A program made the translations under genes and the position numbers. The notes beneath the pieces were generated by a model that was not told the origin of the DNA, searched no databases, and saw only the letters and a program-made list of their open reading frames with translations. This document shows positions 27,059 through 55,000 of a stretch of DNA of 64,000 nt, in pieces; position 1 is the stretch's first letter, and each line of letters begins with the position of its first letter. Origin of the DNA: an uncultured Elusimicrobia bacterium (GTDB taxonomy: Bacteria; Elusimicrobiota; Elusimicrobia; 2-02-FULL-39-32); assembly GCA_964523525.1 (NCBI GenBank), contig CAZFYO010000003.1, positions 164,147 to 228,146 on the forward strand, given 5' to 3'.

Positions 27059-27085
27059 ATATTTTTCGGAATCCTGACTTGGGCC

Positions 27086-27114: not shown

Positions 27115-27147
27115 TCTGCCATAGTTCACTGATCTTTCATTGGCTTA

Positions 27148-27268: not shown

Positions 27269-27292
27269 AGTCCAAAACCTCTTGAGAACAGG

Positions 27293-27867: not shown

Positions 27868-27998
27868 TCCGCCCGCTCGCCTAGAGCGTTTCTCCCCTTG
27901 GGGAAGCGCGCACGTCTCCGAACACCGGCCGCCAACCGTCTGATTGATTGTTTTATCGCCATTGCTCCGCCCGTTTTTTGAAAGGCACAGTTTCGTTT

Positions 27999-28024
27999 TA
28001 CGCGCGCACGCGCGTGCGCGTACG
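27999..28024. repeat. 26-nt perfectly alternating pyrimidine-purine, near-palindromic tract TACGCGCGCACGCGCGTGCGCGTACG ~40 nt upstream of the giant-gene start
   Basis: Read directly from the sequence. Potential Z-DNA-forming segment or a stable ~10-bp RNA hairpin (one A-C mismatch) in the inter-cistronic region. Confidence 0.3.
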
Positions 28025-28064
28025 AGGAATCGACGGAAAAAAGGAGCCTGAACCACTCGAAACC

Positions 28065-31000
28065 ATGAGCATCGCAAGCGTGAAGAAATTCTTCAGAACC
28101 AGCCTCGCCCTCCTCGGAGCGGCGAGCCTGGTCTTGCTTGCGCGCACCACCTGGACCGCCGACACCTACTGGCCGAACGCCAACATCGGCACCGACCCCG
28201 AGCTGTGGCACGGTGAGACGGCGTTCTCGCTCAATGGTCAGACCAACCTCTTCGATTTCGCGAACTCCACAACTCGGCAGATGGCCGTATCGTTCACGGC
28301 GCCGACGCTCTCCACGATGACCCTGCAGGAAGTCCTGCTCCCCTGGTCTCAGTCCAACACGAACCAGACCCAGACCGTGCGCGTCCGTGTCGCAGACGAT
28401 GATAACGGCGATCCGAGCGGCGTGTACATCGCGACCGGAACCCTGGTGATCGTGAACGAACCCAACACCGGAAAATGGCGCAGTTTTGATATGACGGGCG
28501 GCGGCCCCGCGCCGACGCTGTCCGCCGGGTCCGTTTACCATCTCGTCATCGATAAAACAGTGGGAGGCCGTAATACGGTACAGGGTATTCCGGTCCGCAG
28601 ATCCATTGCCACTGCGCTCAATGATCCTTCGGCATTGAAGCGCGTGGTTTCCACGGCTACCGCGGCGACGCCGAACCTGGCCATGAACGTCAGCACGCGC
28701 GGCGCCACCAACGAAGCCTGGATGCCTCAGGACGCGGAACCCACCTTCCTGGTGAAGTTCGGCGTCACGCTTCCCAACCTGTTCTATTGGGGCAACCCCT
28801 ATCCCAGTCTCAGCGATAACACCAACAACGGCGCCCCCGCTGGACAGTTCAACGACTACTCACCCCGCATCAACCAGGCGTTGTACAAGTCCATCCTGCT
28901 GAGGTCTTCGGCCGGCGGGGGAACGAAAAAATTAAGCCGCCTCAACGTGCTGGTCGGCAAGGACACCACCACGCCCGCGGAGTCCCTGAAGATTTCGATT
29001 GAACGGACCGATACCTACGAGATGGTCGTTCCCACTGTTACCTTCGTACGCGGAACGGATTTTGCATCGGTGGACGAAGTCGTGTGGAAAACCATCAATC
29101 TGGCCAGCAACTCCGTAGTCTTAGCGGAAGGCGTCCCCTACCGCATCAAATTTTTCTCGCCAAATTCGGGAAATAATTTGGGTTACCGGCTCTACATTCA
29201 TGCGGCTTGCGATGCCGGCGGCGTGGAATGTAACCTGGACACGGTCTACTCGGAGGCCACGTTCGATGGAGACAATACCGCGATCGAAGAGTCGTCGGAC
29301 AGCGGCGTCACCTGGACACCGAATTACGGCGCCGACATAAACTTCCAGATGCGGTTCGACAACGACGTTCCGCTGATGGCCATCACCCAGCCGGCGCAGA
29401 ACGACGAATGGAACTCGATTCCCGTGATTTCCGGAACCGCTGAGGACCAGGACAAGACTGATCACGCTCTGAGCTCGCGCACCGTGGAAGTTCATATCAA
29501 GAACATTACTAACGGTTCCAATGAAGAGTGGAGCGGGACGGCCTGGGCCCCGCCGACCGGAGCCGATACGGACAACTGGAATTCCACGGGAGCCATATCC
29601 TATACCAACGGATTCAATACCCACAATTGGGACTACCGCATCCCAGCGGCAAACTGGACGCCCCAGGCCAAATACAATGTGCGCGCCCGCGCCTACGACG
29701 CGGTGCGAAACGTCTCCACCGTTTACTCCACAACTTTCACCTACAGCCCGTATCGAGGCTCACCGGAAGCGCCCGATTCCCTCCTGACCAGCATCGTGGA
29801 TAAATCGACGGTTGCAGTGGTCAATGGACTGATCGGTACGGCGAACGACGTCAATCCTCTGACTGATATTTTGGGCAACGGATTCACGGGCGTTTCCAAC
29901 GTCAAAGTGTACGTCAAGGACACGGATTCCAACGTCTGGTGGAACAGCGGCGCGTCCACCTTCTCCTCTACCGTGGAAACGTCGCTGTTCGCGTCCTTCA
30001 ATTCGCAAAATCCCGGCGGAAATTACGACTGGCAGATCACCGCGATCGGAAACCTGAATTTCATTCATGGCAAGCGGTACGCCGTCTATACGCGCGCCAT
30101 CGATAACAGCAACGTCTCGATAGCGACCGGCGTGGTGGAAAACCTGATCAGCACAATCACGTTCCGCGTGGACCGCGCAACTCCGACCGCGGCGATCACC
30201 CAGCCGGCGCATCAGGGTTCCGCTCCCTCGGCCATTATCATCAGCGGTACCGCCGTGGACTCTGTCTCCGGAGTTCAGCGGGTGGAGTATATGATCCAGG
30301 ACCTGAGCGGATCCAACCCCGGTTTCTACCTTAATAGCGCGGGCAACGGCTGGTCGATTTCCGAACCGTCCGATTGGCCCGACGCCGACATGGGCGTGCA
30401 GTTTTCCACCTGGTCCGCCGCTCCCGGAACGACCTTGACCAGCGGCGATTACGTGGTTCGCGCGCGCGTCTACGACATCGTGGGCAACAACACGGCCGGG
30501 ACTTACTCGCTTACGGTTACATCCATCACTGTAACGGTCGACAATACCCCGCCCACGTCCGCCGTGACAGTTCCGACGCACACTTACGTGGGCGCATTCA
30601 CGGCGATCAGCGGAACCGCCAACGATAATGCGAACCTCAACACCGGCGCCCAGATCAACCTCACGGTCTATCAGTCAACTTCTGGAAATTTCTGGTATGA
30701 CCCGGACGGCGATGGGGCCATCGTCGGCCGGTGGAGAAACGTTCTTTCTTCCATTACAATTACCAGCGTTCCGAATTCTCCGAGCTGGAACTGGACCTAT
30801 ACTCCTCCCGCGCACATGTTCCGGACGGGCGGCACCTACGTTTTATGCTCGACGGCCACCGACACGTCCACCAACCGCCAGACCGGCGGGAACGTGGTCT
30901 ATACGGTACAGTACGACACGCAGACTCCCGTCGCCCAATTCCAGAAGCCCGAGTTCGGGCTGGGCTGGATCCGGAGCCTGCCGACCATCTCCGGAACAAG

Positions 31001-34000
31001 CTGGGACGCTTTCGACGGCCTGGCGTTTTCGAGCATCAGCGCCGTGGACGTGGAGATCCGCGAAGACCCCACGATTACCGGCGACTATTGGAACAATACG
31101 GGCCAATCCTACGGCGGTTCGCAGCTTTGGAATACGGCAACCCTCGGCGCGCAGAACGGGGGCGCCCGTAGCTGGAGCCTGACCGGAACGGTGGAGAACG
31201 CGTTCCGCCTCCTGGGCGCGACCTACACGATTACAATCCGGGCTCAGGACAACGCTCCCATCCCGTCCAGCGGATACAGCAAAAACCTGCAGAACCCGAC
31301 CTCGTCCTATGTTTTTCTGTGGGACGCGGAACGTCCGACGACGACAATTACCAGCCCGACTTTATCGCGCCATAACGACGCGAGCTGGTCATCCCTTTAC
31401 AGCGTCACGAATTCGAGCGCCATCCAGGGTTACGCGATAGACGGGTCCAACCGCTCGGGAATCTCCGCGGTGCAAATGCGGATCGACCGCAACAATCTGA
31501 CGGCTTCTCATTGGGACTTCGCCACCCAGGTCTGGACCGCCGGTCTTTCTTCGGATTCCGACTGGGTCAGCATCCCCGTCGTTCGCTACGCGTCTTCCTC
31601 CACCTGGAGCTACGCGGCGCTCAAATCCTCCGCACTGGCGGATACCGGCAGTTATTCCATCTATGTGCGCTCTCGCGACAACGCCCTGGCATTCGACAAT
31701 AACGCCGCCAATAACTTCAACTGGAACTGGCAGAATTCCAGCACCACTTTCATTTACGACGTCACAACGCCGGTATCGGTCTCCACTCAGCCGACCACTT
31801 CGCTGACATTCATCAACAGCTGGGACCAGGCCGTCGGCATCCGAGGCACCGCTTCCGATCCCAACAGCGGGGTCATCAACCAGGTGAACGTCGGCGTCCG
31901 GCGCAACAGCGACATGAAATGGTGGAACACCTCCAACCAGGACTTTACCGACTCGCCGGGACCCACCCTGGTCTCCACCAACATCGTGGCGGGCGCGCCC
32001 TATCAGTTCTGGTACATCCCTTTCCGTCAGAATGACGTGTCGGTGCGCAACGAGCTCACGCACAACACATCCTACGCGATCCTGATCCAGGCGGTGGACA
32101 GCCTGGCGCAGTCGGAGTCGCTGGGGAAAGCCTATACCACGTTCTATTTCGACATCGCCAAGCCGACGGCGGCCGTGTCCTGGCCGGACTCGAACGGAGG
32201 CCTGAACAACCGCAGCTACAACTCCGTGACCAGCGCCTCGGGTACAATCGCCGATAACATCCCGGTGACCGTCGGCATTGTGGAACCCCTGGACGCGAGC
32301 CTCATCGAGGTCCAGATTACCACGGCCGGCAGCGACGGCACTTACTTCTATCAGGGGCCGAACGTGGCGCAGGGATCGCGCTGGAGCAAGACGCAGAAGT
32401 GGCTTTCGAACTCGGACGGCCAGGTGAACATAACCTATAATTCAACGCTTGGGACGTGGCAGTATGCGGAAACGGGGTGCAACGGATCGCTCTGCGTCGG
32501 GGACGACAGTGTTTGGCAGAACGGCACCCAGTACGGCATCCGCGCCCGCGCCACCGACAAAGCGGGGAACGTCCAGACCGCTTTCACCAATTTCCAAACG
32601 ACCTTCACTTTTGATAACTCCGGTCCTTCGGCCGTGAGCGTCACCAACCCGGCTCCGGCGCACACGCACCGCCGCAGCCTGACCACGATTTCCGGTACCG
32701 CGACCGACAACGGCGGCGTATCGTCCATGGATTTCCGGGTCTGCATGACCAGCGATACGAACACCTGCTGGGACGGATCGAGATGGGCGGTGAACGCCAG
32801 CACCTACAATCAGGCGTATTTTGACGGAACCGCCTGGGGGGCTCCCATCAGCGTGAGTGCCTGGCAGGACGGATACCAGTACTCCATCATCCCGCGGGCG
32901 CGCGACGGCGTGCTGCCCGCCGGCAACGCCACGGTGGGAACGGCCAAAACGTTCCGCTGGGACTCCACCGTCCCCACGTCCGGGATCCAGTTCCCCGTTC
33001 CGAACCCGCCGGACAACTATTACAAGAGCTCGCAGATGGGCTCCATCGTGGGTACCGCGGACGATACGTCGCCCGGCACCCTGAGCAAAGTTGAACTCGC
33101 GATCACCCGTCTCACCCTCGGCGGCGCCGCGGAAGTCGAGTTTGATTACACGAACCGCTTTGACGACAGCCAGCGTTGGAACTCCGCCGCGCCCGGAACG
33201 CCTCTCTACTTCAATGCGGCCGGCAATCCCACTCTGGCGAGCTGGATCTACAGCATCGACTTTTCCACCTGGTTTGAAACAGGCCGCTCTTACCAGATTC
33301 GCGTCCGCGCGGAAGACGCGGGGCAAAACGTCCTGTCCGGAGGGACGGGCAATCAGTCCATCGTCCGGATGAGCTCGTTCACCATCGATAACACGGCGCC
33401 GCTTTCCGCCAGCACCTCTCCCGTGGCCAACGACATCGTTTCCACCCTCGCCGCCATATTCGGGACGGCGAGCGACTCGGGCGGCGCGGACATTTCCACG
33501 GTTTCGATCCACATCCGCCAGACGAACACGGGAACTCGCAGCGCCGCGAACTGGAACGGCTCAGGATTCGTTGAAGGCGCGGACAACGCCTCCAGCTTCG
33601 CGAACTGGTTCATGGTATCCGGCGTGGACGCGGCCACGCATACGTGGCGCTACGCCACGGTGACCGGCACGGAATGGGCCGGCGGCACGGGCGTGAACGA
33701 AGCCTATCAATACCGGGTGGTGTCCCGCGCCGAAGACCGCGCGGGCAATCACGAGGTGAGCCGCACGACCATCACGTTTGTCTACGACGCCCGCAAGCCG
33801 GCCTCCAATTTCACTAATCCTCCTTATAACAACTACTTCACCTCTTACACCCTGACGTATATCTCGGGAACCGCGACGGACCCGGGCGCCAACGGCGTCA
33901 CGGGAATTTTTGTCACCGGTGTGCGGGCGAAAATCCAGAGGATGGACACGGGCGAGTATTGGGATGCCGCGCAGGCGCCCGGCCTGAGATGGCAGACCGC

Positions 34001-37000
34001 GATCACCTCGAACAACGCCTCGGCGGCGGACGGCTCTTTTGACGGAACGTCCAACGAACCCTGGCGTTACGACATCAGCGACGGGGAGTTCTGGGTCAGC
34101 AACACATCCTATACCATCACCAGCGTCGCGCGCGATGCCGCCACGGTTCCGGGACCCAACGTGGAAACCGCGGTTCCTTCGCGGATATTCATTTACGATC
34201 CCGTCCTGCCGGGCGCCACGATCCAGGCGCCGGTCTCGGCGGACCATTACAACCGGCATTCCAAACCCCTGCTGACGATCTCCGGCACGGCGACCGACGC
34301 GGCGCCGGGCTCGATCGACCGCGTGATCGTGAAAATCCAGAGCGGCACGGGCGTCAACTACTGGACAGGATCGGCCTGGGACACGAGCATCACGAGCCTT
34401 ACCGCGACTTTGGGCGCGGGAACCACCAATTGGAATTTCGATATTCCGGGCACGGCCTGGGAGGATGGAAATATTTACAAGGTTTATGCCTACGCCGTGG
34501 ACCGGGCCTCCAACAACATCACGGGCGCGAGCCAGATCGTCAAAACTTTCACGATGGATCTCACGACCCCGACCGCCGTCGTCATCTCGCCCCTGGACGA
34601 CGCATCAAACGGCATCGCCTCCATTCAGGGCATTTCCGGAACCGCTTCGGACCCTGCGCCCGGCCAGATCATGACGGTCGAGTTTCAGATAGAAGAGAAA
34701 GGCGGCGGCTATTCGGAGAGCAGCAGCAAATTTCTGAACTCCGGCAAGACCGCGTTCGACGCGTCCTCCAACACGTTCCACAGCGCGACGTTCCTGACGG
34801 GCAGCACCTGGACGCTGAACACGTCGGTCGTGCCCTGGGGCAACGGGAATTACCGCGTGTACATGCGCGTCACGGACCGCGCCACCAACTACAACACTAA
34901 ACCCGGCGCGGCGGGACCTTTCTCGGCCATGGTCGAGTTCAAATTTGAATCCCAACCGGAGTCGTACATCACATTCCCCGCGCATGACTCCTATAAAAGA
35001 CCCTCGCAGGTCTCGGCCCCCAGCGCCATCTCCGGCACCGCCAAGGACGGCGCGGCGAAAGTGGACGCCAAGCTGGTGGACTGCGGCGACGACTTCGATT
35101 GTACCACCGGCGCCGATAACTACGGCTGGTGGGGCTCGTCCTGGTCCGCCAACGCCACGGGCTACATCACGACGACTTTGGACGGCGTGCCCAGCCCGGA
35201 CACCTGGAATTTCTCTGTGCCGCAGGCTTCCTGGACGGCCTTGGGGCAGTCGCGCAAATACCTGCTGGTTTCGCGCTCCTACCTGGGAATCACCCCGGAG
35301 CACGCGGTCGATCCAAACCCCAGCGGAGCGCAGCGCAACGCCAAGAATTTCGTCGTCGACAACCAAAACCCGACCGTGGGCGTGACGCGGCCCTCCAACA
35401 ACGTGGCGTTCACGAGCGCGGCGCTGACCAGCGTTTCAGGCACCGCGTCCGATGCTTCGCCGGGCGCCCTGGATACGACTTCCGTTAAGTTCCGCATCGT
35501 CCGCTCCTCTGATTCCGCCGAGTGGAACACGGGGTCTCAGGTCTTCGTCAATCCTCCGGGCGACCTGTTCTCGGCCACCAACCTGGGCGGCGGCAACTTC
35601 AGCTTTACGAACGCGGACTTTACCAACAGCCGTCCCTGGGTGGACGGCGTGAACTACGCGATCTATATCCAGGCCAACGATTCCGCCGGCAACCCCGCAG
35701 GCAGCGCGGTCGAAGCCTTCAACACGTTCGTTTATGATATCTCAGTTCCGTCCGCCGCCATCCTGATTCCGGCGGCCAACAATCTCTTTATCCGCCCGCT
35801 TTCGACCATCAACGGCACCGTGATCGACGTGGACCCCGACGTGACGCGCAATGACATCAGCTCGAGCGGCGTTCACGCGGTGCACCTCACCATCCAGTCT
35901 CTTGGACCCAACCAGCCCGGCGACTATTTCGACGGCGCGTCGTTCGGATCGGGCGTTTCAACCCTGACGGCCACTCTGACGGGCAACAACTGGAGCTACA
36001 ACAACGCCGGCCTCTATAATTTCCTGGCCAACGCCAGCAACGCGGGCAACACCTACACGATAAGAACCTGGGCGGTTGACCGCGCCTCGAACGCTTCCAT
36101 TAACAACGCCTCGGTCGGATTCGCTTCCATGACGTTCACGATTGATCCCAGCTCACCGACCATGGCCGTTACATCGCCGGCGGACGGGTCCAAGTACCGC
36201 ACGAATAACGTCCCTCAGATTGTTGGTACCGCGGTTGACTCGCCGACGGGCGCGGGCAAAGCCAGCGCCGGCCTCAAGAACCCCGGGCTTTCCGCGGACG
36301 GCGGCATTATCGTGGAAGTTTCCTATCTGCACGGCGGCAGCACCTATTATTTTGATAACGTCACGCCCTGGACTACGGTCTTTACCACGCGTCAGCCCAC
36401 GACGCAGACGCCCTGGAACCTGACGACCCCGGCACAGGCCGCCTATGACGATGTCATCTCGAACCACGGAGATAAACAGATTCGCGTCCGGGTTCGCGCG
36501 CGCGACGCGGTGCGCCTGTCCGATAACAGCGGCTACGATTCCAACCTCGCCGACTACACCGGATACACCAGCTTCATTATTGACGGAACGCCGCCGGTTT
36601 CGAGCGTGACGACGCCCGCCCCGGGAGCGCTTCTGAACGCTCTGACCTCGATCGCGGGCACGGCGAACGCGGACCTTTCGGGGTTGGCCGGACTGGACGT
36701 GCGGATCGCGACGCCGTCGGCGGCGCCCGCTTCCTGGTGGACGGGCTCGAGTTGGAGCGCGACCGAGTTCTGGGTGCCGGCCACCGTGGACTCGCAGACG
36801 GCCTGGCATTACGATATCTCGGCTTCAATGCTGGTTTCCAGCCGCACCTATCAGTTCGCTTCACGCGCCTACGACGTGGTCGGCAACACCCAGACCGCCA
36901 TCACGGTTTCGAGTTTCACTTTTGACAATGTTCCCGGCGTGGTGGTGAGCACCCTGCCCGTCACGAGCCAATATTACGGCGGCTCCGGCGTTACTCCCTT

Positions 37001-40000
37001 TACGGGTAACTATACGCCGCGTCCGCTCTCCATGATCGCCGGCACCGCCGAAGACGCTTTGGGCGGCGTGCGCCGCGTGGAGCTGGAGATCCGGCAGAGC
37101 AGTGCGGTGCTGTACTACGATGGCACCGGATTCGCGGCGCTTTCATCTTCCTGGAATGTCACGAACCAGGTGACCTACCATACCAGCTCGGCCACATGGC
37201 GAATGGTCAATCTCCCCGCGCTGCACAGCAGCAGCCGTTACCTCCTTCGGGCGAGGATGATCGACAACGCTCTGAATATTTCCAGCGATCCGTCGAACGG
37301 ATCGACCATCGATTTCCTTTATGACACGGCCTACCCCACCAGCACGCTGTTGACGCCGGCCAGCCCCTATATCCGGTCCATCTCGGTGATTTCGGGAACC
37401 GTGCAGGACGAACAGGTCGCCGACCCGAACAACACCACCGGCCGCAACGCCGGGTTTGAGCGGGTCGAAATCGCGATCCAGGAAGTGGGCGGCGGGCTTT
37501 ACTGGGACGGCGCGGGCGGCGGAAGCTTCACCCAGCCCGAGTCGTGGTACGCGGTGGACGGCGGCTTCGTGGTCTCGCAGTCCAGCGTCAACACCTGGTA
37601 TAAAACGACGCTTCCCGCTTTCTCTCCGGGCGAATCCTACTGGGTGCGCAGCCGCGTGATCGACCGCGCGCGCAACGTTTCGCTGGAGCTCGTCACCTCG
37701 ACCTACACGTTCCTTTACGATCCGACGCCCCCGACCGTGACGATCGGATATCCCGAATCGTTCCGCCTGCGCCAGTCGTCCGTTGCGTTCTCGTCCGGCA
37801 CCGCTTCCGATACGGGCGGAGCGGGCCTGAACGTGGTCCAGATGAAACTGCGGTTGAACACCGCGGGCGGATCGGGCGGCACGAACGGCAAGTTCTGGGA
37901 CCCGTCCACGTCCCGCGTCACGCCGGAAAACAACAACAATTTCTCCAAGAACGAGGATGACGATACGGCCTGGTTCAGCGCGAACGGGACTTCCATCTGG
38001 TCCACCGGTTCCTTCGCCGCAACCTGGGTGGATGGATCGTCTTACAGCATCGTGGTCCGGTCGCAGGACCGCGCCGGAAACTATTCCGCGTCTTACGCGA
38101 CCGTCAGCTTTACGATTGATAACGGCTTGCCGAGCTCCTACGTTTCGCTTCCTTCTTCCGCGGTCATCCAAGGCCTGCCGTTGGGCCGCGTTTCCGGAAC
38201 CGCGTCGGATTCCGGAACCGGCGTGGTCAACAGCGTGCAGGTCGCGGTGAAACTTTTGAGCGGCGCGGGAGATATGTGGCTGTCCGGCGGCGGACAGTTC
38301 AACGTGAACCAACTGAACCCGAACTGGCTGGATCAGGCGACCGGCGGCGTCAACTTTACTCCCGGAGCGCCGGCGGTCTGGGACCGGCCGATTCCGGCGG
38401 CGAGCCTGGTCAGCGGCGCTTCCTATTACGTGATCAGCCGCGCGGTGGATGAAGTCGCCAACCAGGAAGGCAGCGGGAACGGCAACATGAACACGATCCG
38501 CGGTTCAACCTTCACGTATGACCGCAACGTCCCGACCGCGACCGTCACGATCCCTCTTCAGCTTTCGTACAACAACGCTTCGCTGCTCCCGCGCATTTCG
38601 GGAACCGCGGCCGATCTCCTGTCGGTGGACAGCTCCGTGAACCGGGTCGCCGGGATCGACCTCTTCATCCAGCAGGCGACCGCGGCGGTTTACTGGACCG
38701 GCGGCGGCTGGTCGGCGACCCCTTCCGGCATTTCGATTTCAACCGCTTCGCTCCCCTACGGCAACACCTGGGGCTACACTCTCAGCGGCGCGGCGCTCCG
38801 CCACAACGCGACCTACTTCATCTGGGTCCGCGCGCAGGACCTGGCCGGCAACGAACAGACTTCATTCGCCGCCGGATCTTCGTCCAAAACGTTCAATTAC
38901 GATATCGGCGCGCCGACTTCGTCCATCCAGGGCCTGACGAACTTCGCTTTCTACCGCAAGGAAACCATCACCACGATTTCGGGAACGGCTGAAGACGAAG
39001 GGGAAATCGGCCGGGTCTTTACCAGCTCCTATTCGATCAAGCAGGCGAGCCCCGAACTCTGGTGGGACGGCAGCACCTTCACCTCTCCGACCGAAACCTT
39101 CTTCGCCCTGAACCACGACGGCTCGGGAATGTGGTCCACCGGCACGATGATCAACCGGTTCGTGGACGGCCGCGAATACGCGGCGCGCTTCATTTCCGTG
39201 GACCGCGCCCAGAACGTGGAAGCCCTTAAGGCCATGACCAGCTTCTATTTCGATATTTCGACGCCCTCGGTCCAGATCCAGATGCCCGTTCACGGCGCCG
39301 GTTACAACACTTTGGGAACCATCTCCGGAACCGCCGGCGACAATTTCATAGGGCTCAACAGCATCCAGAGAGTGGAGTACGCGGTGTTCGTGGACACTGG
39401 CGGCTACTACCGTTCCGGACCGCGCGACTTCGAGGCGACGACTCACTACTACAACCTCGCGACCGCGGACATGGCGAACTGGAGCCAGTGGAGCGCGACC
39501 AACATTCCCTGGTCCACGGGACGCACCTACACTTTGGACGTCCGGGCGCTGGACCGCGCCGGAAACATCCAGGCCAGCTTTACGGTCGGAGTTGATTCGC
39601 TGACGTTCACTTTCGACAGCAGCTCGCCGACCATAGCGATTGAAAGCCCGGCGGACGCTTCCGTGGGAGTGTTCACCACGCCTCGTCTCGGGACGCTCGC
39701 GGCGATTTCCGGAACCGCGGCCGACTTGAACGGCATCCGCCGAGTCGAAGTGCAGATTCAGCAGGGCGCGGCCGGCGACGCGCCGGCGCGTTACTGGAAC
39801 GGCACCGGGTTCAGCACGGTGGGTTCGAGCTGGAACGTGGCCGCGGGGGGAACCAGCTGGAGCTACGCGGTCCCCGGGCTATCGAACGACCGCAGTTACC
39901 GCATCGAAGCGCGCGCGGTAGATAATACCGATTTGGTGACGGTCAACATCTCAAGCGCGGATTTCGTGTTCGACACGTCCAGCCCCACGGCCCACTTCCA

Positions 40001-43000: not shown

Positions 43001-46000
43001 GCAATCGCCGACCACGACGCAATATCAATTCCTCTACTCCGCCCCGCCGGCCGCGGTGGGCCTGACGAAGCCGACCAACAACCGGAAGTACATCAGCCTC
43101 ACGTCCCTGGCCGGCACGGCCAACAACACCGTGACGGTGAAAACGGAAGTCCAGATCGAACGCAAGACGGACGGCGCGAAGTGGTCGGTGGCCGGATCCT
43201 CCTGGGGCGTCTACTCTTCCAGCTACAATACTGTCTGCGACAACGCGGCGGGTTGCGGCAACTGGAGCTTCAGCAGCGTGCCGAGCGACTGGCCGGTGCA
43301 CGGATCGTCCTATACGGTCACGATCCGCGGATCAAACTCGATTAACCAGACCAATTCCGAAAGCCGCGATTTTGCCTTTGATACCACTTCGAACGGCGGC
43401 ACCGGAAAACCTGTTTCCGTTTCCACCCAGCCGACAGCTCTCTTCGCCACCAGCATCTTCAACATCGCCGGCACGGCCGCCGACCAGTCCAATCTGGCGG
43501 GCGTGCAGAAGGTGGAAGTCAGCATCCAGCGCTATCGCAACACTTTGACCGAGGAAGACGATCCCAAGTATTACTGGAACGGATCGACCTGGACCAGCGC
43601 GGGTCAGCAGTACCTGAACGCCAGCCTTGTCCAGGCCGCGGCCAACCAGTGGAACTGGGTCTATTCGGTGCAGTTCTCGACCATGTTCGCCGAGGGCTAC
43701 GGCTACAAGATCTGGAGCAAAGTTACGGACAATGCCTATGACACCAACGACAACCTGGTCGGCAACTCGGATGAGCCGAGCCCCGCGGGCTTGTCTTTCA
43801 TCACTTACGACATTCAAAACTCTACGCCGGCCTGGACCAGCCTGAACCACGGGGACGTGCGCTCGGCCTTCTCGGTCACATCGGGCACGGTGCGCGATTC
43901 CGCGAACGCGGGCGCCGACCTCGCGCAGGCGGGCGGCAATCAAATCGGCCAGGTGCAGATCGCCATCAAAGCCGTCGACTCCTTCAACTGGGGCGCGGGC
44001 GCGTTCCTGACGCCGCGCTACTGGGACGGCACATCCTTCCCCGTGGGTGGAACGAACGAAAACTGGCTGCCCACGAACCTCTCGACCGGGGGTATCCTGG
44101 CGGGCGGAATTCTGACCAGCTCCTGGACGTATCCCGCGCAGGGTCTTTCGCTGCCCACGGTCGGAAACGGCGGATTCGTGGACGGCCGTATCTTCACGGT
44201 TTACGTCCGTTCGCTTGATAAGGCCGACAACAACTACACCGCTTTCACCGTCGGCTCGGCGTCGCACACGTTCACGGCCGACGTCACCGCGCCTTCCGCC
44301 CATTTCGTGACGCCCGTCAGCGGCCAGAAACTTCTGGCGCTGAACCCGATTTCCGGAACCGCGGCTGACCCGGTTCCCTCCGCGGGCGTTTCCGTGGCGG
44401 GCATCGGCCGGTCCAGCCTCTCGATCACTTACGTGCAGGGCTTGAACACGTTCTTCTGGACGGGTTCGGCCTGGCAGCAGGTCGTGGCCGATTCCGAGAC
44501 CTGGATCATCGGCGGGTCCACTCCCACGCCTCCTCCGGGCTTCGTGGACCTCTACACCACGAGCGCCACCTGGGAGCGTCCGGGCGTGACCTGGCTGACC
44601 GACAAGCTTTACACGATCCGCGCGCGCGCGAGCGACCGCGCCATACCCGACGCGAATACGGGCGGCATCGCCACCGTGGTCGTGACGATCGATACCACGA
44701 CGCCGGCGTCGGCGGTTGTTGCGCCTTCTGCTTCTCCGATCAGCTCGCTGACGGAAATCACGGGCACGGCCAACGCCGACCTCGCGGGGCTGGCCAACGT
44801 CCATATCACCGTGACGCGGTCGGGCGACAATTTCTACTGGACGGGTTCGAGCTGGTCGGTGAACGGCGCGACGCTGCCCGTGAATTTCGCGGGGACATCG
44901 GGTGATATCACCTGGTCCACGGATTCGCTCGCCACCGCGAACCTCGTGAGCGGAACCACGTACACGATCCGGGCCTACGCCACCGACCTCGTGACGCCCA
45001 GCGCCAACAGCCAGCTGCCGCCGGGACCGGCGAGCTACAAGAACACGCCGTCGTCGTTCAGCTTCCTGTTCGATAATACGCCGCCGTCGATTTCCATCTC
45101 GTCGCCCGTCAGCCAGGGCTTCTACGGGCCCCAGAAGACTTTGGCGAACGTCTCGGGCACGGCTCTGGACGCGCTGGTCGCGACGCGCAAAGTGGAGCTC
45201 GAAATTTACAATTTCAGCCGCGACCGTTACTGGGACGGCCACGGCTTCAACTTCGTTTCTTCCAGCTTCGTGCACCTGACAGGCAACCTGATCAGCTGGA
45301 CCACCGGCATGACCTGGATCACCAACTCGACCTACGGCGTGACGGCCCGCGCCTACGATTCGCTCAATAATTCCTCGACCACGGCCCGCATCAACTTCGT
45401 TTACGATTCCACGGTTCCCGTCGTGAGTCAGGTGATGAACCCCTGGCCGACCACGGGCTACTTCCGCATCCAGTCGCAGCTGAACACGATCTCGGGAACG
45501 GCGCACGACGATTTTGCGGGCATCCCGAACGCCAGCCTGAAGGACATCCGCGTGGCGATCCAGGACGTGGATGACGGCGACGGATTCCCCTGGTGGGACG
45601 GCTCGGCTTTCGCCGCGGCTTCCGCGGATTATCGTATGACCTCGTCCACGATCAGCCTTACGGGCAACGCCCCGTTCAGCTATCCCTTTGGTTCCGACGT
45701 GGTCCCCTCCTGGGCCGCGGGACACAAATACGACGTCCGCGTCCGCGCGACGGACCGTTCGGACAACGTGAGCGCAGTCTATTCCTCAACCTTCACGTTC
45801 GACACTTCTTCGCCCACCGTTTACATTCAGGATCCGAACGTCGCGACCGAGTCGAGCCTGTCCACCCTGTCGGGCACCGCGCTGGACGCCTCGGGCGGGC
45901 CGCAGAGCGGCTCTCTGCGCGTGGTGAAAGTCCGCGTGAAACGCAACTCGGGTACGCCCGGGTTCTGGGACATCAATTCGCAGGGCTTCACCCTGACCAC

Positions 46001-49000
46001 CCTGCTGGACGAAACGACGGGCTGGTTTGACGCCGACACCTCGGACGCTTATGCAAACTGGACCACGACGCAGGCCGCGGGCGCTAACGCTTTCATCAAC
46101 GCTTTCTCTTATTCCGTGCAGGCCATCGCCTATGACCGGGCGGGCTCTTCGTCGCCGATCAGCTTCTCGACGTTCACTTTCGACAGCGGCAAGCCTGCGT
46201 CGTTCGTGAGTTTCCCCGCGGACGGATCGTTCATCCGGTCGCTCAACACGGGCATCACCGGAACCGCGCAGGACCCGGGCGACATCTCGTCCATCACGCA
46301 GATCCGAATCGCGATCAAGCGTTTGGGCGGCGCGTCCGATTCGAACGGCGACCCGAACCGTTACTGGGACGGCGGCGCCACGGTCTTCTCCGCGGCCGGC
46401 AATCCCTATAATTTCAACGGACCGATTTCGCCCACCGGAGGACCGGTCTTCGACTGGATCTACGGCGTTGGCATCCTGCCCACCGCCAAGCTGACGAGCG
46501 GCGTGTCGTACTTCATCACCACGGAAGCCACCGACGCTTCCGGCCAGGTGGAAAACGATTACTATTCCGGCTCCTCGACTTTCACGTTCGACAACTCGTC
46601 GCCCGTCTCGGGCATGGTCCGCCCGCCCCTGGGCGGCATCGTGGTGACCAATCTTCCTTATTACAAGGCGATGACCGTCATTTCCGGAACCGCGGACGAC
46701 TACACGTTCCTGCCTTCCGACCGTCAGCTGAACTCGGGGCTCGTGGGCGGATCGGCCTTCACCCGGATTTCGATCCGGGACCTCACGCAGGGCGCGACCT
46801 ACTGGAACAACGCGAGCAGCATCTTCCAGGACGCGCCGGCCAATATCAGCGAATCCGGTTCGTTCTTTGACGTCACCTTTACGGGAGCCTCCTCCGGGAC
46901 CTGGAGCGCCAATGCCGGGGCGCTCAACAGCCAGATGGTTTCGGGACACACCTATATCGTCAAATCGTCCGCGTCGGACAACATCGGCAACGTCCAGTCC
47001 GGCGTCTACGTCAGCTCGTTCGTGTTCGACGCGAGCTCTCCGACCCTGGCGATCACCGCGCCGGTCGCGTTCCCCGCGGGCCAATACACGGGCCTCGCCC
47101 AGATCAACGGCACCACGCAGGACAATCCCATCGCGCCGCTGTCGCGCGTGGGCATGAGCTCCGTCACCCTGCAGATCCAGGACCTCACGCAGGGAACGAC
47201 TTATTGGAACGGCAACGCGTTCGTCGATTTCCCGACTTCGACGATTAACGTTACGGTTACGGGTCAAGGCACGAACCTCCCCTGGAGCTACGACACGACC
47301 GGCGTTCCCTGGGTGAGCGGCCGCTCTTACCGCATCCACACGCGCGCGGGAGATATGCTCGACAACCGCAGCTCCACCCAGACCGTGGACTTCCGTTTTG
47401 ACTTCACCGCGCCTCAGTCGGCCAGCACGAAGCCCGCCAACGGCGAGGGTTTCAACGCCACCACGAACATCCTGAGCCACCTGGCCGGAACCGCGATCGA
47501 TCTTCCAAATTATTCTTCGGCGCCGTTTAACTCCGGCATCTACAGAGTGCAGATCCAATTGTGGAAGGAAAAATCGGCTCCCAATAACGATGTTTACAAC
47601 GCGGGCACCGATGAAGCCTTCGACCCTGTGCAGGTATCGTCATTCGCGGCCGGCAATTCCCTGCAGTGGATCGACATCTCCAACGTGTCTCCCGTGTTCA
47701 CGTCCTCGCCTTCCTCCATCAACTGGTATTACCCCGTGAGCGACGCGGCGTTCGCCAGCGGCGAAAGCTACCGCCTGAAAGTCCATACGCTGGACTGGCT
47801 GCGGAACGAAGAATCCACTCCGGCGCTGGTGGCCTCCAATTTTGTCCGGTTCTCCAAAGACGCGGCGCCGCCCGTTTCCTACGTGCAGTATCCCGCGGAA
47901 GGGCAGTCCTACATCAACCCGACCGTGATCTCGGGAACCAGCGCCGACGTGACGTCGGCCATCCGCCGCGTGCAGATCCGTATCCGCCGGCAGAACACGC
48001 CGAGCGACCTCTACTGGGAAGGTTCGGCCACGCAGTGGCAGAACAATCCTTCGACCTGGGTGACGACGTCTCACTTCAACGTTTGGGTGACGTCGGTGGA
48101 CTGGCAGTATCAGGACGTGCCGGCGACGTGGCCCAGCGGAACGACGTACTACGTCAACGTGCGCTCTGAAGATACAGCCGACAACGTGGAAACTGCGTTC
48201 ACGACCCGCACGTTCACGATCGATAACGTCGCGCCGCAGGTTTACATCCAGAAACCTCTGAACAATTCCGGTTTCGCCCCGCTCAACCCGCTCAGCACGA
48301 TTTCCGGTACGGCTTCCGACGACCTGGCCGGCGTTAACCGCGTTTACGTCCAGATCAAGGACCTGACGCCGGGCGCCTCCTGGTTCAACGGCACCGACTT
48401 TACGGCCGCCAACCCCCCCGAGATCGGCTCGGTGCAGGCTTCCTGGCTGACGGCCTCGAACACGTTCTGGTATTTCAATACGCCGGTTCCCTATCAGTCG
48501 GGCCGCTACTACCGCGTGGTCGCGAAGGGTTACGATAACGCCGGCAACGCCATGGCGGGAGCGGACTTCGTGGTGGGGCAGACTTCTAACACGTTCTCGT
48601 ACGATTCGTCCAGCGCGACCGCGTACCTCGCGTCGCCGGCCGACAACCGCTCTTACAACGCGGCCACGCTTCCTAATATAACCGGCACCGCGTCCGACGA
48701 CTTCTCGGGAGTGCAGAACGTTTTGCTCCAGGTGCGCGACATCACCCAGGGCACGACCTACTGGAACGGCGTGTCGTTCGTGAATTCGGTGCAGACGATC
48801 GAGCTCGCGGTCCAGGGATCGAGCCAGCCTCTGCCCGCGCTTTCGACCTACAGCTATAACACCGCGTCGCTTGCGTCGGCGATGATCACCGGTCACCGCT
48901 ACACGATCAACGTGCGCGGCCGCGATGTGGCGCAGAACGTGCAGAACGCGTCGCTCTCGCCCACTTACACGGTTCTGTTCGATACCGAGCCGCCGACCGG

Positions 49001-52000
49001 TTACTTCACGAAGCCCGATTCCGCGTTCCACAGCGCGGCGAACCCCCTCGACTTCCTGGTGGGAACTTCGACCGATACGCCCAACGATATTCTGGCGGCG
49101 CCCGCTACTGCCGAGATCCGTATCCGCCGCAACCCGCCCGGCACCGAATATTGGGACGGGTTGGGCTGGACTTCCACAGCCAACACCTGGCTTTCTAGCG
49201 CGCCCGCCCTGTCGTGGAGCCTGGCGAAGCCCACTCCCGACTGGGAAGACGACACCCAATACCGCGTCGAAGTGCGCGTCCGCGACAGCGCCGGCAATCT
49301 CGGACCCTCGACCACGTTCCAGATCTCCGGAAGCCTGTTCTTTACTTACGATTCGGGACTGCCCGCGGCGGGAATCGGAACGCCCGTCCTGCCCAACATC
49401 AATTCTCTGACGCAGATCACCGGGACGGCGCAGGACCCCAACGGCCCGAACGGATCGGTGGATAAATCGCTCATCCACTCCGTGAAGATCGCGGTTCAGG
49501 ACCGCAACAGCCTGAACTGGTGGAACGGCACGCTGATCAACATCGACAATCCGACGTTCACCGGCGCGGGCGGTTTCAGCGCGGAACCGGCGGCGTTCTG
49601 GATCGCGATGGCGACCACGACCGAAACCCAGGGCGGCGGCGCGATTTCCTGGAGCACCGCAAGCCCCAGCCTGCCGCTCGTCGCGGGCTCAACCTACACG
49701 GTTTACGTGCGGGCCAAAGACAACGCTTTGAACTTCAATACGCCCATCAGCTCCGTGACGTTCCGCTATGACAACACCACGCCCGCGTCGCGCTCCACGG
49801 CCCCTGCGGACGGATCGGTGGTCTCCGCGGTGCCCGCGATCGCCGGAACCGCGGCCGACAGCGGCAGCGTTTCTCTCGTCACGCAGGTCGGCGTTTCCAT
49901 CGGAGCCCTCTTCGGCGCCGCCACCCGCTACTATCAGCAGGGCGTGGGCTTCGTCCCCGGATCGACCGAATACTTCAACCCCGCGGTCATTGCGGGCGGC
50001 GCGAACTGGACTTATAACGACGGATTGCTGACGTACGAAGCGGGACGCCGCTACATCGTCCGCTCGCAGGCGCGCGACATCGCAGGCAACCAGGAAGATT
50101 TCAGCGCGGTCACGCCGGCATCGTTCCTCTTTGATAACTTCAAACCCACCGCGGCGGTGACGTCGGTGAACAACGGCGACTACATCGCGGCGGCCGCGTT
50201 GACGATTTCCGGCGGCGCCAGCGACAGCGCGTTCACTCAACCCGTGTCCTCGGCCTCGGGCCTGGCGGAGCTGACCGACGGCGGCGTGCAGGTCCGCATC
50301 CAGGACCTGAGCGGCGGTAACCCCACGAGCGGCAGATGGTGGGCGTTCGAAAGCGATTTCTCGGGCAACGACGCGTCGGCCGCATGGATCAACGCCCTCA
50401 CTGGAACGCCCGCTTCCTGGACCCTGACCGATACGGTCATCAATACCAAGCTGGCATCGGGCCGCCCCTATATGATTCAGGTCCGGGCGAAAGACAAAGC
50501 GTCGCCCGCGAACGTGGGCCCGAGCTCGAACGGGACCGATTCCAACTTCATCGGCGTCGCGCACGATTCCAAGACCTTCATCTATGACCCCGACGCGCCC
50601 ACTTCCTACGTGCAGTTCCCGCCCGTGACGACCGTGCGGAAACTGAACGCGGCGGGTATCACCCAGATTTCCGGAACCGCGTCGGACGCCCTGAGCGGCG
50701 TTCCCGCCAACCCCGCCAATATCGAGGTTTCCATGCAGGAAGTCTCGCCCAACACCGCTTACTGGAACGGCGCGGCGACCTTCACCGCGACTTCGGAAAC
50801 TTATTACGCGGTCGATTCCATGTCGGGCATCAACGGGACCTGGACCCGCAGCTCGCTCCCCACGTTCCAGAACGGGACCACGTACCGCATCCGGGTGCGC
50901 GCGCGCGACGCGGCCCTTCCGACCGGAAACCTGCAGACCACGAATTTCTCGACCTCGGTCTTCATCTACGATACTCAGCTGCCGACGTCCACGGTCACCA
51001 ACATCAACGAGAACCAGTTCGTGACGGGCTTCAGCAATCAGATCGTGGGAACCTCGGTGGACAATTTCGAAGTGCGCGGCGTCTCGGTCACGATTTCTTC
51101 CGGACCCACTTCCTGGTGGAACCCCGTCAGCGAGAAATTCGATTCGCCTTCCGCGATCTATCAGCATGCGGTTGCCACCGGCCCCTGGACCTGGGTCTTC
51201 TTCTCAACGAATCTCGCCAGCGGCTACACGTACCGCATCTACTCGTTCGCCACCGACGGCGCCGGCAACACGAACATCACCCGGATTTCAACCCGCACCT
51301 TTGTCTTCGACTCGGGCGTTCCCGATTCATACGTCACCTATCCTCCCGACGGATCCTTCATCGGCGCCAGCAAGCTGACGCGGATCGTGGGTACCTCGAT
51401 GGATCCGCCCTCGGGCGGCGCGCCGGCCAACGTAAAGGTTTACCTCTGGGAAGACGTGGGAGCGGTGGGAACGAAAGAAACCGGCGTGGACCGTTGGTGG
51501 GATGGAACGACCTGGCAGACCAGCGAAACGCCCGTCGCGACCAACGCAACGATCACCAACGCGCCCAACCCCGGCGACTGGGAGCTCACGGCAGACCTTC
51601 CGCCGACGCTTTCCGCGGCGGAGAACGGACGCCGCTACAAGATTTACTCGCAGGCGCTGGACGCCGCGCTCAATACCGAAAACGTTTCGTTGGGCGACGT
51701 CCTGTTCCGCTACGACGAGATCGTCCCGAACGCCGGAATCGTGGTGCCCGCGGGCGGCAGCCTCTATTACAACGGACTGCCCACAATCTCGGGTACCGCG
51801 CAGGACACGCTGAATATCTCGTCGGTGCAGGTGCGCATCGAGGGCCAGGGTATCGGGTTCTGGGACGGCGTCGCGTTCGGCGGGGACAACACGAACTGGC
51901 GGATGGCGGTCGGAACCACGGCCACCAACAACACCATCACCTGGACTTATACGTCGCCGGATTGGGCGGCCAACGGCAACATCCCCTATTTCGTGGAAGC

Positions 52001-55000
52001 GCGCGCCTTCGACGTCGCCGGCAACACCCGCACGCTTTCGGCCAACACCTTCACCTTTGACAACCAGCGGCCGGTTTCCGTCACCAGCTATCCTGTCACC
52101 AGTGATTTGAGATTCTCTTCGATGAACGCCATTGCCGGAACGGCCAACGATCCGGGCTCGTTCCGCAGCGGCATCAAGAACGTGCGCATTATGATCCGCC
52201 GCTCGCTGGACGGCAACTATTGGAGCGTGGGCGATTCCGACTGGACCATCAGCACCGATCCCGATTTCAACATCTCGCCGACCCAGACGCTGCACACTTC
52301 GAGCGCGGTCTGGGTTTACTCGCACCCGAATTTCGTCGACAAAACGGCGTGGCTGCCGTCGGGCCAGACGTTCTACATCTACGTCCGTTCCGAAGACAAC
52401 AGCCGCTATCAGGACTTCTCCACGATGACGCTGCGCGAATTGAACTTCTCCACCCGCACGTTCGTCTTCGACAACGTCGCGCCCGTCTCGCGGCTCTATC
52501 TGCCGGCCGACAAGCGCGCCTACAAAGCGGCGTCCTTCACAAATATTTCGGGTACCGCGACCGACGCCACGAGCCCCATTTCCACCAACGCCATCAAGAT
52601 GTCCCTGAAAGTGGAGGACGATCCCATCGGCCAGAGATACTGGGATGAAAACGGATCGACCTTCACGTTCACGACCGAAACCTGGTGGCAGGCGGGAACG
52701 TTCATGAATTCCACCTGGACGTATCTCGGCTTCGCGACTTCCAAACTCGAAAACGGGCGCCACTACGTGTTCCGGTCCACCGCGGCCGACGTGGTCGGCA
52801 ACACGGAGTCGCCCAGCGCCCAGTCCCGCTTCCTTTACGATACCATTGACCCTCAATCGGCTCTCGTAGCGGGGGACAATACGACGCCCGATCCCGCCAA
52901 CGCGGCAGATCTGGCCTTCGGCACCGATCTCGTCGTCCAGGGCCGCGCGAACGACCCCGGTTTCGTGGACAGCTCGGAGCCTGACCGCGACGATATCGAG
53001 GGAACGGGTTCCGGCGTCGGCCAGCCTCCGACGTCCGACTCGGCCTGGCATACCGGCCGGTTACAGATTTTGATCCTGCGCGACGTGGGCGGAATCCCCG
53101 TGGGCGCGGAGCCGGTGCTCTATTCGGATCCGGGCAAAGGCGAAGCGGGCGATTTCTACTGGAACGGATCGACCTGGGTGGCAGCGACGGGCGGAGAACA
53201 GTGGCAGGACATGACGTACATTGCGGGCGCCGTCACCTCGACCTGGAGATACGACGACATCGCCAACACCAACATCGGCATCCCCGGCCAGACCAGTGCC
53301 TGGTGGAAAGGCGATCAGTACGTGGCCTGGACGCGCGCCATCGATAACGCGGGCAACACCCAGGGCTCGGCGAGCTCCATCGCCTCTGGAGCGAAGTTCA
53401 CGATTTCCAATAACGTCGACCACTTCCACGTGACGGGCCTTCCCGCCTCGCTCGAAGCGGGCGCCGACCAGGGCATGACCATCACCGCGCATGACTCCGA
53501 CCACGCAGTCGCTTCGAACTTCAACGGCCTCATCAATTTCTACGTAGACGGCAATCCGGGCGGACCCGAATCGATGCGCGCGTCGGTCGGCGCGCCGGGC
53601 GACGATCTCGGACTGCCCGCCCAGCAGAGCATGACCAACGGTCTTCTGACTTTGGCCGACAATCTCGGCATGCGGCTACGCAAGGCCGCGACGGGCCGCT
53701 TCGTCCGCGTCGAGACCAACAGCCCAGTGGGCGGCAGCATCCGGTCCGGCAACTCGGCCACGTTTGACGTCACCGAAAACGTTTCCGTTTCTCCCGCGCC
53801 GCGTGTTATGGTGCTCCTGGGCGGCCAGCAGTATGCGCCGGGCAAAACCTCGGCGCCCGAAGGCCGCGTGAACAATTCCACTCCGACGTACCGCACCGCG
53901 GGCGACACCCTGCAGATCACGCTCCGCGCGGTGGACAAATACTGGAACACGCTGGTTTCGTCGAACCCTCAGGTGGCGCTCACCATCACAGATCCCTTCG
54001 TGGCGAACGTCAGCTCCGCGAACCCTCAGCTTTCATTTGGTTCCGCCACGGTGACCGCGGAAGTCCGCACGGTCGGCAACTGGGCCGTGAACGCGCAGGG
54101 CGCGGGACTCTACACCAACAACGCCAACCCCTCATCCGATTTCGAAGTGAAGCCGGGCGCGGCGACGCGCCTCCTGGCCCGGTTCCCCGGCGAATCGCGC
54201 CAGGAAGGAAAGACATCGGCGCCCGCCGGCAAGAGCGGCACGCCCACTGCGTTGCAGGCCGGCACCACCATCACCATCACGGTGCATGGCGTGGACTCCT
54301 ACTACAACACCGACCCCACGTCCAACATGCAGATCATTGTGGAGACGCCGTTCGACAATGCGGATACCGAGCCTGCGCCGCGCAACCTGGTCAACGGCAC
54401 CACGCATTTTGACATCACATACCTGACCGCGGGAACCCAGACCGTTAAAATCCGCACCACCGCGATCGCGGGGGCAAACTCCACGTACATCACGCCAAAC
54501 CCCGTCACGGTTTACCCCGACGGCGAACAGCATCTCCTGATCCTGATGCCCGGCGAAACTCGCATCTCGACCCGCACCGCCCCGGGCAAAACCGGCGCCG
54601 CCACCGCGCTCACCGCCGGCACGACGTACGGCGCGACCGTGCACCTCGTGGACCGATTCTTCAACGTGGTGGACTCGACCAACGACTTCAACACGGACGT
54701 GGTCTGGCCGACCGTGAAAGTCACGCTCTCCGATCCGTTCGATCAGGCTTGGGGCTATGAGCCCGCGGCCGGCAACATCGGGCCGCCGTTCAACGGCACG
54801 CGCGTCTTCCAGGTGCGCCCCGTCACAAAGAACCTGCTCAGCAACGCGACCGCGCATGCGTCGGACGACAATTTCGAAAGCCTCTACACCAACGACACGT
54901 CCAGCGGCATCCGCGTGAATCCGGGCTCGGCGACCCGCCTGCAGACCGTCGTGCTCGGCGAAACGCCCGTGGAAGGCTCCAATTTTGCGAACGGCAAGCA

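Follow-up and report, generated by a model that had tools for sequence, protein, structure and literature searches.

Giant surface fibers built of tandem bacterial immunoglobulin-like (Ig-like) domains are already known. The region II (RII) extender of MpIBP (also MpAFP) from Marinomonas primoryensis (PDB 4p99) is a long head-to-tail array of Ig-like domains forming a rod, in which ~120 repeats of 104 residues are identical at the DNA level. Each RII domain measures ~45 Å in length, and the Ca2+ between two repeats is held by the C-terminal Asp104 of the first and by Asp191 of the second; the latter residue lies in the β7-β8 hairpin and precedes the terminal Asp of its own repeat by 17 residues (PMC4083281). 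SiiE from Salmonella enterica (PDB 2yn3) carries 53 BIg domains that are diverged rather than identical. Ca2+ sites at its type I interfaces keep the rod linear and rigid (PMC5466336). Here, we analyzed a 64,000-nucleotide stretch of an uncultured Elusimicrobia bacterium (contig CAZFYO010000003.1, positions 164,147 to 228,146; hereafter referred to as the window), in which a single giant gene encodes 60 tandem Ig-like units, designated type A. We consider it fairly probable that this 24-kb region specifies the stalk of a giant cell-surface fiber that is exported by Sec and has an adhesive or spacer role, and that this stalk is rigid and probably braced by Ca2+.

The giant protein is among the largest bacterial proteins and belongs to a phylum that has almost no cultured members and an all but unexplored cell-surface biology. 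Proteins of over 5,000 amino acids are abundant in Elusimicrobia (PMC11573180). The type-A family is not described in a dedicated giant-gene preprint. The new elements reported here are a long unit subtype outside curated models, an array of exceptional length whose positions are conserved, a composite A/B/C(+) architecture, and a putative Sec-type start.

A giant gene with 60 tandem type-A units

A six-frame scan of the window revealed a stop-free frame on the plus strand at 27948-63998 (12,017 codons) that is still open at the window end. The first plausible start is the ATG at 28065, with GGAAAAAAGGAG just before it, and from this codon at least 11,978 amino acids are encoded without a stop, in a single uninterrupted open reading frame (ORF) that far exceeds the 5,000 codons marking a huge protein. 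Since the 3′ end of the gene and the C terminus of the protein, along with any anchoring or sorting signal there, lie beyond the window, the length of the gene is a lower bound. The protein has 13 cysteines in 11,978 residues, 22% serine plus threonine, and a net acidic charge, a composition that would fit an extracellular fiber. The gene and its main repeat zone are positioned as follows.

28065..63998, plus strand: giant ORF of at least 11,978 stop-free codons, with a complete 5′ end and a 3′ end truncated at the window border
29397..52880, plus strand: 60 tandem type-A Ig-like units with a mean period of 130.6 residues (self-HMM, alignment A1, and AlphaFold2)
52881..53798, plus strand: transition zone holding a degenerate 61st type-A unit at nucleotides 53115-53423

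The type-A units were delimited with a hidden Markov model (HMM) that was seeded from anchor-delimited segments and iterated on the protein itself (self-HMM). Sixty full-length, contiguous units were found at residues 445-8267 (nucleotides 29397-52865), each scoring between 41.5 and 89.7 bits, while no domain in 20 shuffled versions of the protein scored above 5.3 bits. The model built from the final alignment counts 61 units; the additional one is a partial match (model positions 36-111, 37 bits) that retains YWNGS and RAIDNAGN and is devoid of SGTAxD. A first-pass annotation, made from the sequence without database searches, had proposed about 60 divergent repeats at 29380-53410, and both the number of units and the coordinates (to ~20 nucleotides at each end) agree with our delineation. 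It had also anticipated variable unit lengths, although its range of 110-145 residues was slightly too narrow, as the period varies from 111 to 157 residues.

The consensus of the units reads ...L..ISGTAxD...sG...VeV.I........YWnGs..F......W.......g...W.Y..........G..Y.i.vRA.D.AGN.......s.TF.yD...Pt.avt.P. The SGTAxD, YWNG, and RAxDxAGN motifs recognized in the first pass are all present, and a linker motif, TFxxDxxxP, can be added to them. Within SGTAxD, the glycine is found in 60/60 units, the threonine in 57/60, and the aspartate in 56/60, whereas the tryptophan of YWNG is present in 43/60. The aspartate of RAxDxAGN is conserved in 58 of the 60 units and its asparagine in 41, and the aspartate and proline of the linker motif (F..D...P) in 56 and 55, respectively. 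Other conserved positions are a tryptophan (57/60), a tyrosine (55/60), and a phenylalanine (51/60). The units carry a variable middle insert of ~50 residues around YWNG...W; loops and lengths vary widely while the core is fixed.

Relative to the upstream genes (positions 1-28000), the giant gene region (28000-64000) had a higher GC content (0.62-0.64, compared to 0.55-0.61) and a GC skew that was negative throughout (-0.05 to -0.13). A composition rich in threonine, serine, alanine, asparagine, and aspartate may account for this shift. Long minus-strand ORFs were also found within the giant gene between 40044 and 53051, e.g., at 43332-45725 (797 residues), 47640-49478 (612 residues), and 40044-41867 (607 residues). 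These are probably by-products of biased, GC-rich codon usage and not genes, and they carry a risk of mis-annotation.

Predicted fold and family identity of the type-A unit

With the 60 paralogous units supplied as the alignment, AlphaFold2 predicted a single type-A unit to be all-β with seven strands (predicted local distance difference test [pLDDT] score of 87.2 and predicted template modeling [pTM] score of 0.77). A Foldseek search of this model against the PDB returned only fibronectin type III (FN3) or Ig domains, with E values of 0.01 or higher, template modeling (TM) scores of 0.43-0.48, and a probability of 1.0 for the FN3 top matches. The seven-strand model and these FN3 top matches, weakly scored as they are, place the unit in the Ig/FN3-like β-sandwich (E-set) class, in line with the first-pass annotation. 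A two-unit model of 248 residues was then obtained from 59 overlapping di-domain segments (pLDDT of 85.7 and pTM of 0.77). The junction residues 101-120 reached pLDDT values of 92-93, and a strand at residues 114-119 directly follows D109...P113 and leads into the next sandwich. This model structurally matches tandem FN3/Ig proteins, and the modeled inter-unit linker is short and ordered, as expected of a rod. The extended fiber suggested from the initial inspection is thus supported by a confident two-domain model, as well as by the likeness of the units to the rod-forming extenders of SiiE and MpIBP described below.

No Pfam or NCBIfam model exceeded its threshold on a single type-A unit. 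Big_13 (PF19077) reached 33 bits (gathering threshold, 27) when summed over a 3,000-residue chunk, with 0 individually significant stretches; on single units, it matched 10/60 at an E value of ≤0.1 (best E value, 3.8e-5) and none of the other 50. Scores for Big_7 (PF17957; 19.2 bits, threshold 24.1) and Big_3_2 (PF12245; 18.9 bits, threshold 23.3) were below threshold, with 5/60 and 2/60 single units matching at an E value of ≤0.1, respectively. The NCBIfam OmpL47-type β-barrel domain (NF047446) scored 31.5, 34.4, and 18.9 bits in three chunks against a cutoff of 40, without any individually significant stretch. These four models share with the type-A unit its C-terminal strands (...Y.v.v.A.D.AGN....t..D...P) and its SGTA.D..GV..V start, which are the segments where the weak matches are located, but they comprise 68-122 positions and the type-A unit is longer. 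As the first-pass annotation had suggested, the unit does not match Big_2, VCBS, or cadherin: none of the three Pfam models matched the protein at an E value of ≤0.01 or single units at an E value of ≤0.1.

In a profile search against PDB sequences, SiiE BIg50-52 ranked first (2yn3; E value, 4.4e-6) and the MpIBP RII tetra-tandemer second (4p99; E value, 1.3e-4), followed by the cadherin repeats of protocadherin-15 (E values, 0.006-0.016) and by 8cka (E value, 0.028). Judged by its sequence, the type-A unit is a long (~130-residue) divergent branch of the bacterial Ig-like superfamily and not an orphan fold. The initial description of a poorly described Ig-like family therefore stands insofar as no model exceeds threshold on single units, but it must be qualified because NCBI already labels relatives as "Ig-like domain repeat protein." The unit is widespread: a profile search of 1.84 billion representatives yielded 25,180 proteins at an E value of ≤1e-3, 10,250 at ≤1e-10, and 2,150 at ≤1e-30, and among the top matches listed, most span the full unit and carry 8-54 copies each. 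Type-A units thus occur in ~25,000 representative proteins in metagenomes, yet they remain below threshold in Pfam and NCBIfam. A dedicated model derived from alignment A1 would improve the annotation of thousands of "hypothetical" fragments and help to reassemble broken giant genes.

Conserved aspartates at the junctions between units

When the type-A profile was aligned with MpIBP using HMMER, the aspartates of SSDAAGN and HTVD in MpIBP, which are 17 residues apart, aligned with the nearly invariant aspartates of RAxDxAGN (58/60) and TFxxD (56/60), respectively. On the basis of the 17-residue spacing, these MpIBP residues correspond to the side-chain ligands Asp191 and Asp104. The pair of residues that characterizes a Ca2+-rigidified BIg extender, i.e., a C-terminal aspartate and an aspartate in the hairpin of the next domain, is hence found in the type-A unit, and Ca2+ binding itself is predicted. 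Because the type-A aspartates align with the MpIBP ligands and because interface sites rigidify SiiE, we propose that the junctions of the type-A array are braced by Ca2+.

In the proposed arrangement, 60 Ig/FN3-type sandwiches of ~130 residues each (61 with the degenerate one) would be joined head to tail, and the short linker (TFxxD-xxx-P-t-s-a-v-x-x-P) would continue directly into the opening strand of the domain that follows, producing a rod. From the strand topology, the C-terminal pole of unit n would carry the aspartates of TFxxD and SGTAxD, and the N-terminal pole of unit n+1 would carry the RAxDxAGN aspartate, which is located in the F-G hairpin. The two junction aspartates, from TFxxD and from RAxDxAGN of the following unit, would most likely hold Ca2+ and stiffen the joint. 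At the MpIBP value of ~4.5 nm per domain, the type-A zone would extend over ~0.27 μm and the 82 domains in the window over ~0.37 μm. By analogy with known fibers, such a stalk could project the non-repeat head or the distal modules far from the cell envelope, where they could meet a surface, a particle, or another cell.

The locus nevertheless differs from its closest described counterparts. In MpIBP, only the C-terminal half of the type-A unit finds an equivalent, with both inter-repeat Ca2+ ligands conserved and an acidic character in common. The MpIBP repeats are identical, whereas the 60 units described here are 25% identical, and the ~130-residue type-A unit contains an extra YWNG...W insert. 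Moreover, MpIBP is a substrate of a type I secretion system (T1SS) of the repeats-in-toxin (RTX) class and its RII lacks lysine and arginine, while here the start is Sec-like, no RTX motif occurs in the window, and the type-A zone has 427 lysines and arginines compared to 626 aspartates and glutamates. SiiE is the best PDB sequence match and its domains are likewise diverged, but only the last 50-55 residues of the type-A unit align with it. Its BIg domains are shorter and have 5-6 conserved acidic residues forming two types of sites, compared to three conserved aspartates in type A, and SiiE is secreted by the SPI4 T1SS in an organism of a different phylum. Cadherin and protocadherin extracellular cadherin (EC) repeats are also tandem β-sandwiches with Asp-rich Ca2+ linkers, consistent with the weak profile match to protocadherin-15. 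They differ in that neither the DxNDNxP linker nor the DRE motif occurs here (0 matches, with 0 D.[ND][DN].P motifs) and that there is no match to the Pfam Cadherin model.

Age and positional conservation of the array

Pairwise comparison of the 60 units gave a mean protein identity of 25% (range, 14-40%) and a mean codon-aligned DNA identity of 42%, with a maximum of 53.5%; no near-identical copies were thus found. Tandem Repeats Finder detected no array at the unit period, and a DNA repeat search recovered only short motif-encoding stretches with 60-80% identity. Adjacent units were 25.4% identical and distant units 25.1%. A super-repeat periodicity was considered and rejected, as identity remained flat at ~25% over offsets of 1-12. 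Since identities are flat with respect to both neighbors and offsets, the array has no super-repeat and bears no trace of recent local duplication.

Window units 30-53 are matched one to one, and in the same order, by units in other Elusimicrobiota genomes. Successive units of the relative P0017 best match window units 30, 31, 32, ... 46, 48, ... 51, 52, and the same holds for P0037 and P0001. Orthologous units are ~38% identical, compared to 25% between paralogues, and the median ratio of the best to the second-best bit score is 1.2-1.5. Because relatives carry unit-for-unit counterparts, these sequence comparisons place the origin of at least the part of the array comprising units 30-53 before the split of these lineages, with every position retained since. 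No concerted evolution was seen among the units. Unit-by-unit orthology of this kind provides a clean natural example of a long domain array kept from homogenizing. The initial view of the array as old and maintained is strongly supported: DNA identity is low, neighbors and particular offsets have no effect, and orthology is positional.

N terminus and downstream modules

The type-A array opens a series of at least three repeat zones and is preceded by a putative signal peptide and a head.

28065..28160, plus strand: putative Sec-type signal peptide MSIASVKKFFRTSLALLGAASLVLLARTTWTA, as judged by eye, in which a basic n-region and a hydrophobic core are combined with a WTA site of the small-x-small type
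28161..29396, plus strand: non-repeat head of ~410 residues, of which residues 63-172 (nucleotides 28251-28580) resemble "choice-of-anchor R"
53799..62288, plus strand: 22 tandem type-B units of ~125 residues (self-HMM, 64-104 bits; alignment A2)
62289..63998, plus strand: third β-rich module type, cut by the window end, with relatives in P0129, P0040, and L003

The N terminus, MSIASVKKFFRTSLALLGAASLVLLARTTWTA followed by D, has the typical layout of a Sec signal peptide when read by eye. Because of this resemblance, we infer Sec-type export of the giant protein. No segment in the first 444 residues reached the transmembrane hydropathy threshold. The head has no Pfam match; against NCBIfam NF041539 ("choice-of-anchor R"), it scored 27.6 bits (E value, 2.4e-6; cutoff, 30). 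Among the listed relatives, a weakly similar head was found only in P0044 and P0096. The choice-of-anchor R class is typical of proteins with interchangeable C-terminal anchors.

The type-B units carry the signature LxVLxPGET...GKxGTP...Q.AG..F..TV..VD...N.V...DPYD...L..G..F...TA. Searches of Pfam, NCBIfam, and PDB sequences returned no relative of these units, except that 1 of the 22 matches Big_3_5 (E value, 0.0012). Homology between types A and B is not claimed, as HHalign gave a probability of 8% over 26 columns with one shared strand. The type-B array is less characterized than the type-A array. The third module, which has no Pfam or NCBIfam match, is 35% identical over 562 residues to P0129, 34% identical to the end of P0040, and 65% identical to L003 in the best segment. 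P0040 is labeled "RHS repeat domain-containing" by NCBI, a name that is not borne out since its visible tail matches the third module of the window and not YD repeats; the giant ORF has no RHS match in Pfam either.

The giant protein itself is absent from the protein collections searched, in which no protein above ~8,000 residues is listed, and its best relatives are 32-36% identical. Of 20 matches looked up, 14 were named: 11 names point to Elusimicrobiota or Endomicrobiia metagenome-assembled genomes (MAGs), 1 is called "bacterium," 1 bears a truncated "Candidatus ..." name, and P0017 is assigned to both an Elusimicrobia bacterium and "Candidatus Obscuribacterium magneticum." Most of the named matches are flagged as partial and are called either "Ig-like domain repeat protein" or "hypothetical protein" by NCBI. 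Fragments named "Ig-like domain repeat protein" from Elusimicrobiota or Endomicrobiia MAGs (e.g., MFA5858611.1, MCB4756877.1, and MBI5883380.1) carry 20-54 copies of the same full-length unit, with the same type-A-then-type-B order and colinear orthologous units, and are true family members. They are partial or fragmented, 25-36% identical, and uncharacterized, and none holds the full gene; the window array, with 60 units compared to a maximum of 54, is the longest uninterrupted one among those compared. The order of head, type A, and type B recurs in relatives such as P0018 (43 A and 13 B units) and P0040 (20 A and 32 B units).

Two relatives give indications about the part of the gene that lies beyond the window. 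L003, an orthologue-like fragment from an uncultured Elusimicrobia MAG (CAYHWZ010000053.1), was the one relative found in a scan of genome contigs and is 49.6% identical over 1,449 residues. At 4172-10447, L003 continues for ~2,080 residues past the equivalent of the window end without a stop and without a Pfam match, and because of this extension, the complete gene from the window probably exceeds 14,000 codons. The L003 extension appears by eye to consist of repeated modules of ~200-250 residues with the pattern ...V..i.iW.D.n..g..d..D..ig.... P0129, a complete and shorter relative (5,048 residues), has CarboxypepD_reg domains followed by a terminal FlgD_ig domain (34.6 bits; cutoff, 27). 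Because P0129 ends in this way, its architecture hints at a possible C-terminal sorting or anchoring domain in the giant protein family.

P0001, the closest database homologue, lies within a locus (ena:ERZ26871208, contig_125795_np1212, 389929-415613) of at least 9 adjacent same-strand "genes" of 175 to more than 3,045 residues, five of which have faint or weak Big_13, Big_7, or Big_3_2 matches. This string most likely represents one homologous giant gene split by frameshifts or gene calling.

Role of the array

Several observations weigh against a Ca2+-braced, Sec-exported stalk. The structural matches of the type-A unit to solved structures are generic, as reflected by their TM scores and E values, and the matches to SiiE, MpIBP, and protocadherin-15 are confined to profile positions ~49-118, i.e., the C-terminal half of the unit. 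Most of the 5-6 conserved acidic residues of SiiE BIg are missing from the type-A unit, the AlphaFold models are without ions, and the aspartates are placed from strand order. No secretion-system genes were found in the 28 kb upstream. Finally, the strong position-specific conservation suggests that the units may have functions beyond spacing. The last point would be accommodated if the array were a multi-site binding platform in which each variable insert offered a distinct surface for glycans, matrix components, or partner proteins. Orthologous units being closer to each other (~38%) than paralogues (25%), in an order kept over at least 20 units, would fit such a platform, as would loops and lengths that vary around a fixed core and the absence of concerted evolution. 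However, low inter-unit identity combined with positional orthology is equally expected of a purely structural rod, and no recognizable lectin, carbohydrate-binding module, or enzyme signature was found in any unit in Pfam scans. In titin-like proteins, non-identical neighboring domains limit misfolding and recombination. We regard the platform as unlikely and as compatible with a stalk instead of exclusive of it.

The nearest solved sequence relatives of the type-A unit are extender domains of SiiE and MpIBP, and the protein has the giant size and the tandem-Ig architecture of the RTX or type I-secreted giant adhesins (SiiE, LapA, and MpIBP type), which are exported C terminus first through a T1SS. 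Membership in this class is nonetheless very improbable, as the N terminus resembles a Sec signal peptide and not a T1SS retention module, 0 GGxGxD nonapeptide motifs occur in the 11,978 residues visible (the C terminus lying beyond the window), the 28 kb upstream hold no ATP-binding cassette (ABC), membrane fusion protein, or TolC genes of a T1SS, and P0129, the one complete relative examined, has FlgD_ig at its end in place of RTX repeats. We also consider it quite improbable that the protein is a structural component of the envelope or matrix (S-layer-like, sheath, or biofilm scaffold) as opposed to a projecting adhesin. The structural matches of the two-unit model do include the Deinococcus HPI S-layer protein (8cka; TMq of 0.38 and 18% identity), which was also retrieved by the sequence profile search, as well as the biofilm scaffold RbmA; these matches, however, reflect a generic tandem β-sandwich likeness, S-layer proteins are as a rule much smaller and form self-assembling lattices, and no SLH or other lattice or anchor domain was detected in the window with Pfam. 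As for a recent amplification or an assembly artifact, we see practically no chance of either: the DNA identity between units is low, no tandem array of the unit period was detected, neighbors are no more alike than distant units, orthologous units exist in independent assemblies, and no point in favor was found. The stalk of a surface fiber thus remains our preferred explanation for the array.

Upstream neighborhood

In the 28 kb upstream of the giant gene, chromosomal housekeeping genes are accompanied by genes for tetratricopeptide repeat (TPR) proteins and for an ABC-2 exporter that has no relation to T1SS. Directly upstream, on the same strand, are two tandem paralogous genes (23180-25054 and 25051-26976, plus strand), each encoding at least 6 predicted transmembrane segments, an early FFFDDE or FVFDDF motif, and C-terminal TPRs. 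The transmembrane part of the pair has no Pfam, NCBIfam, or PDB match. Among 69 homologues, 9 carry PF13231 (PMT_2) and 1 carries PF08409 (TMTC DUF1736), and 3 are named protein O-mannosyl-transferase. The pair may consist of GT-C protein O-glycosyltransferases, distantly of the PMT_2/TMTC type, acting on the Ser/Thr-rich fiber. At three loci of distant homologues, giant Ig genes were not found in conserved synteny. Eukaryotic TMTC enzymes O-mannosylate cadherin repeats, and O-glycosylation by the upstream pair would, if true, represent a bacterial counterpart.

A more far-reaching possibility, which we hold to be rather doubtful, is that the type-A unit is an essentially Elusimicrobiota-specific Ig-like family, covered by no existing model, in which each position of the 60-domain rod has been individually conserved since before the lineage split. 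If so, individual positions would have functions of their own, e.g., as a ruler or as a coded binding surface. In addition, the Ser/Thr-rich fiber may be O-glycosylated by the two upstream transmembrane and TPR proteins. Unless the position-specific or the glycosylation reading holds, the general picture of giant Ig-repeat surface fibers is unchanged and the advance is incremental.

The 1.1-kb gap between the TPR genes and the giant gene (26977-28064) contains a minus-strand ORF of 224 residues (27126-27800) without a Pfam match and, at 27384-27405, a hairpin resembling a terminator, with TTTTGCCTTT after it; promoter- and terminator-like sites in this gap were not above shuffle expectation. 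Farther away, ~10 kb upstream of the giant gene, a plus-strand ORF of 974 residues (14957-17881) matches Pfam RHS_repeat with 37 bits and TIGR01643 with 27.8 bits.

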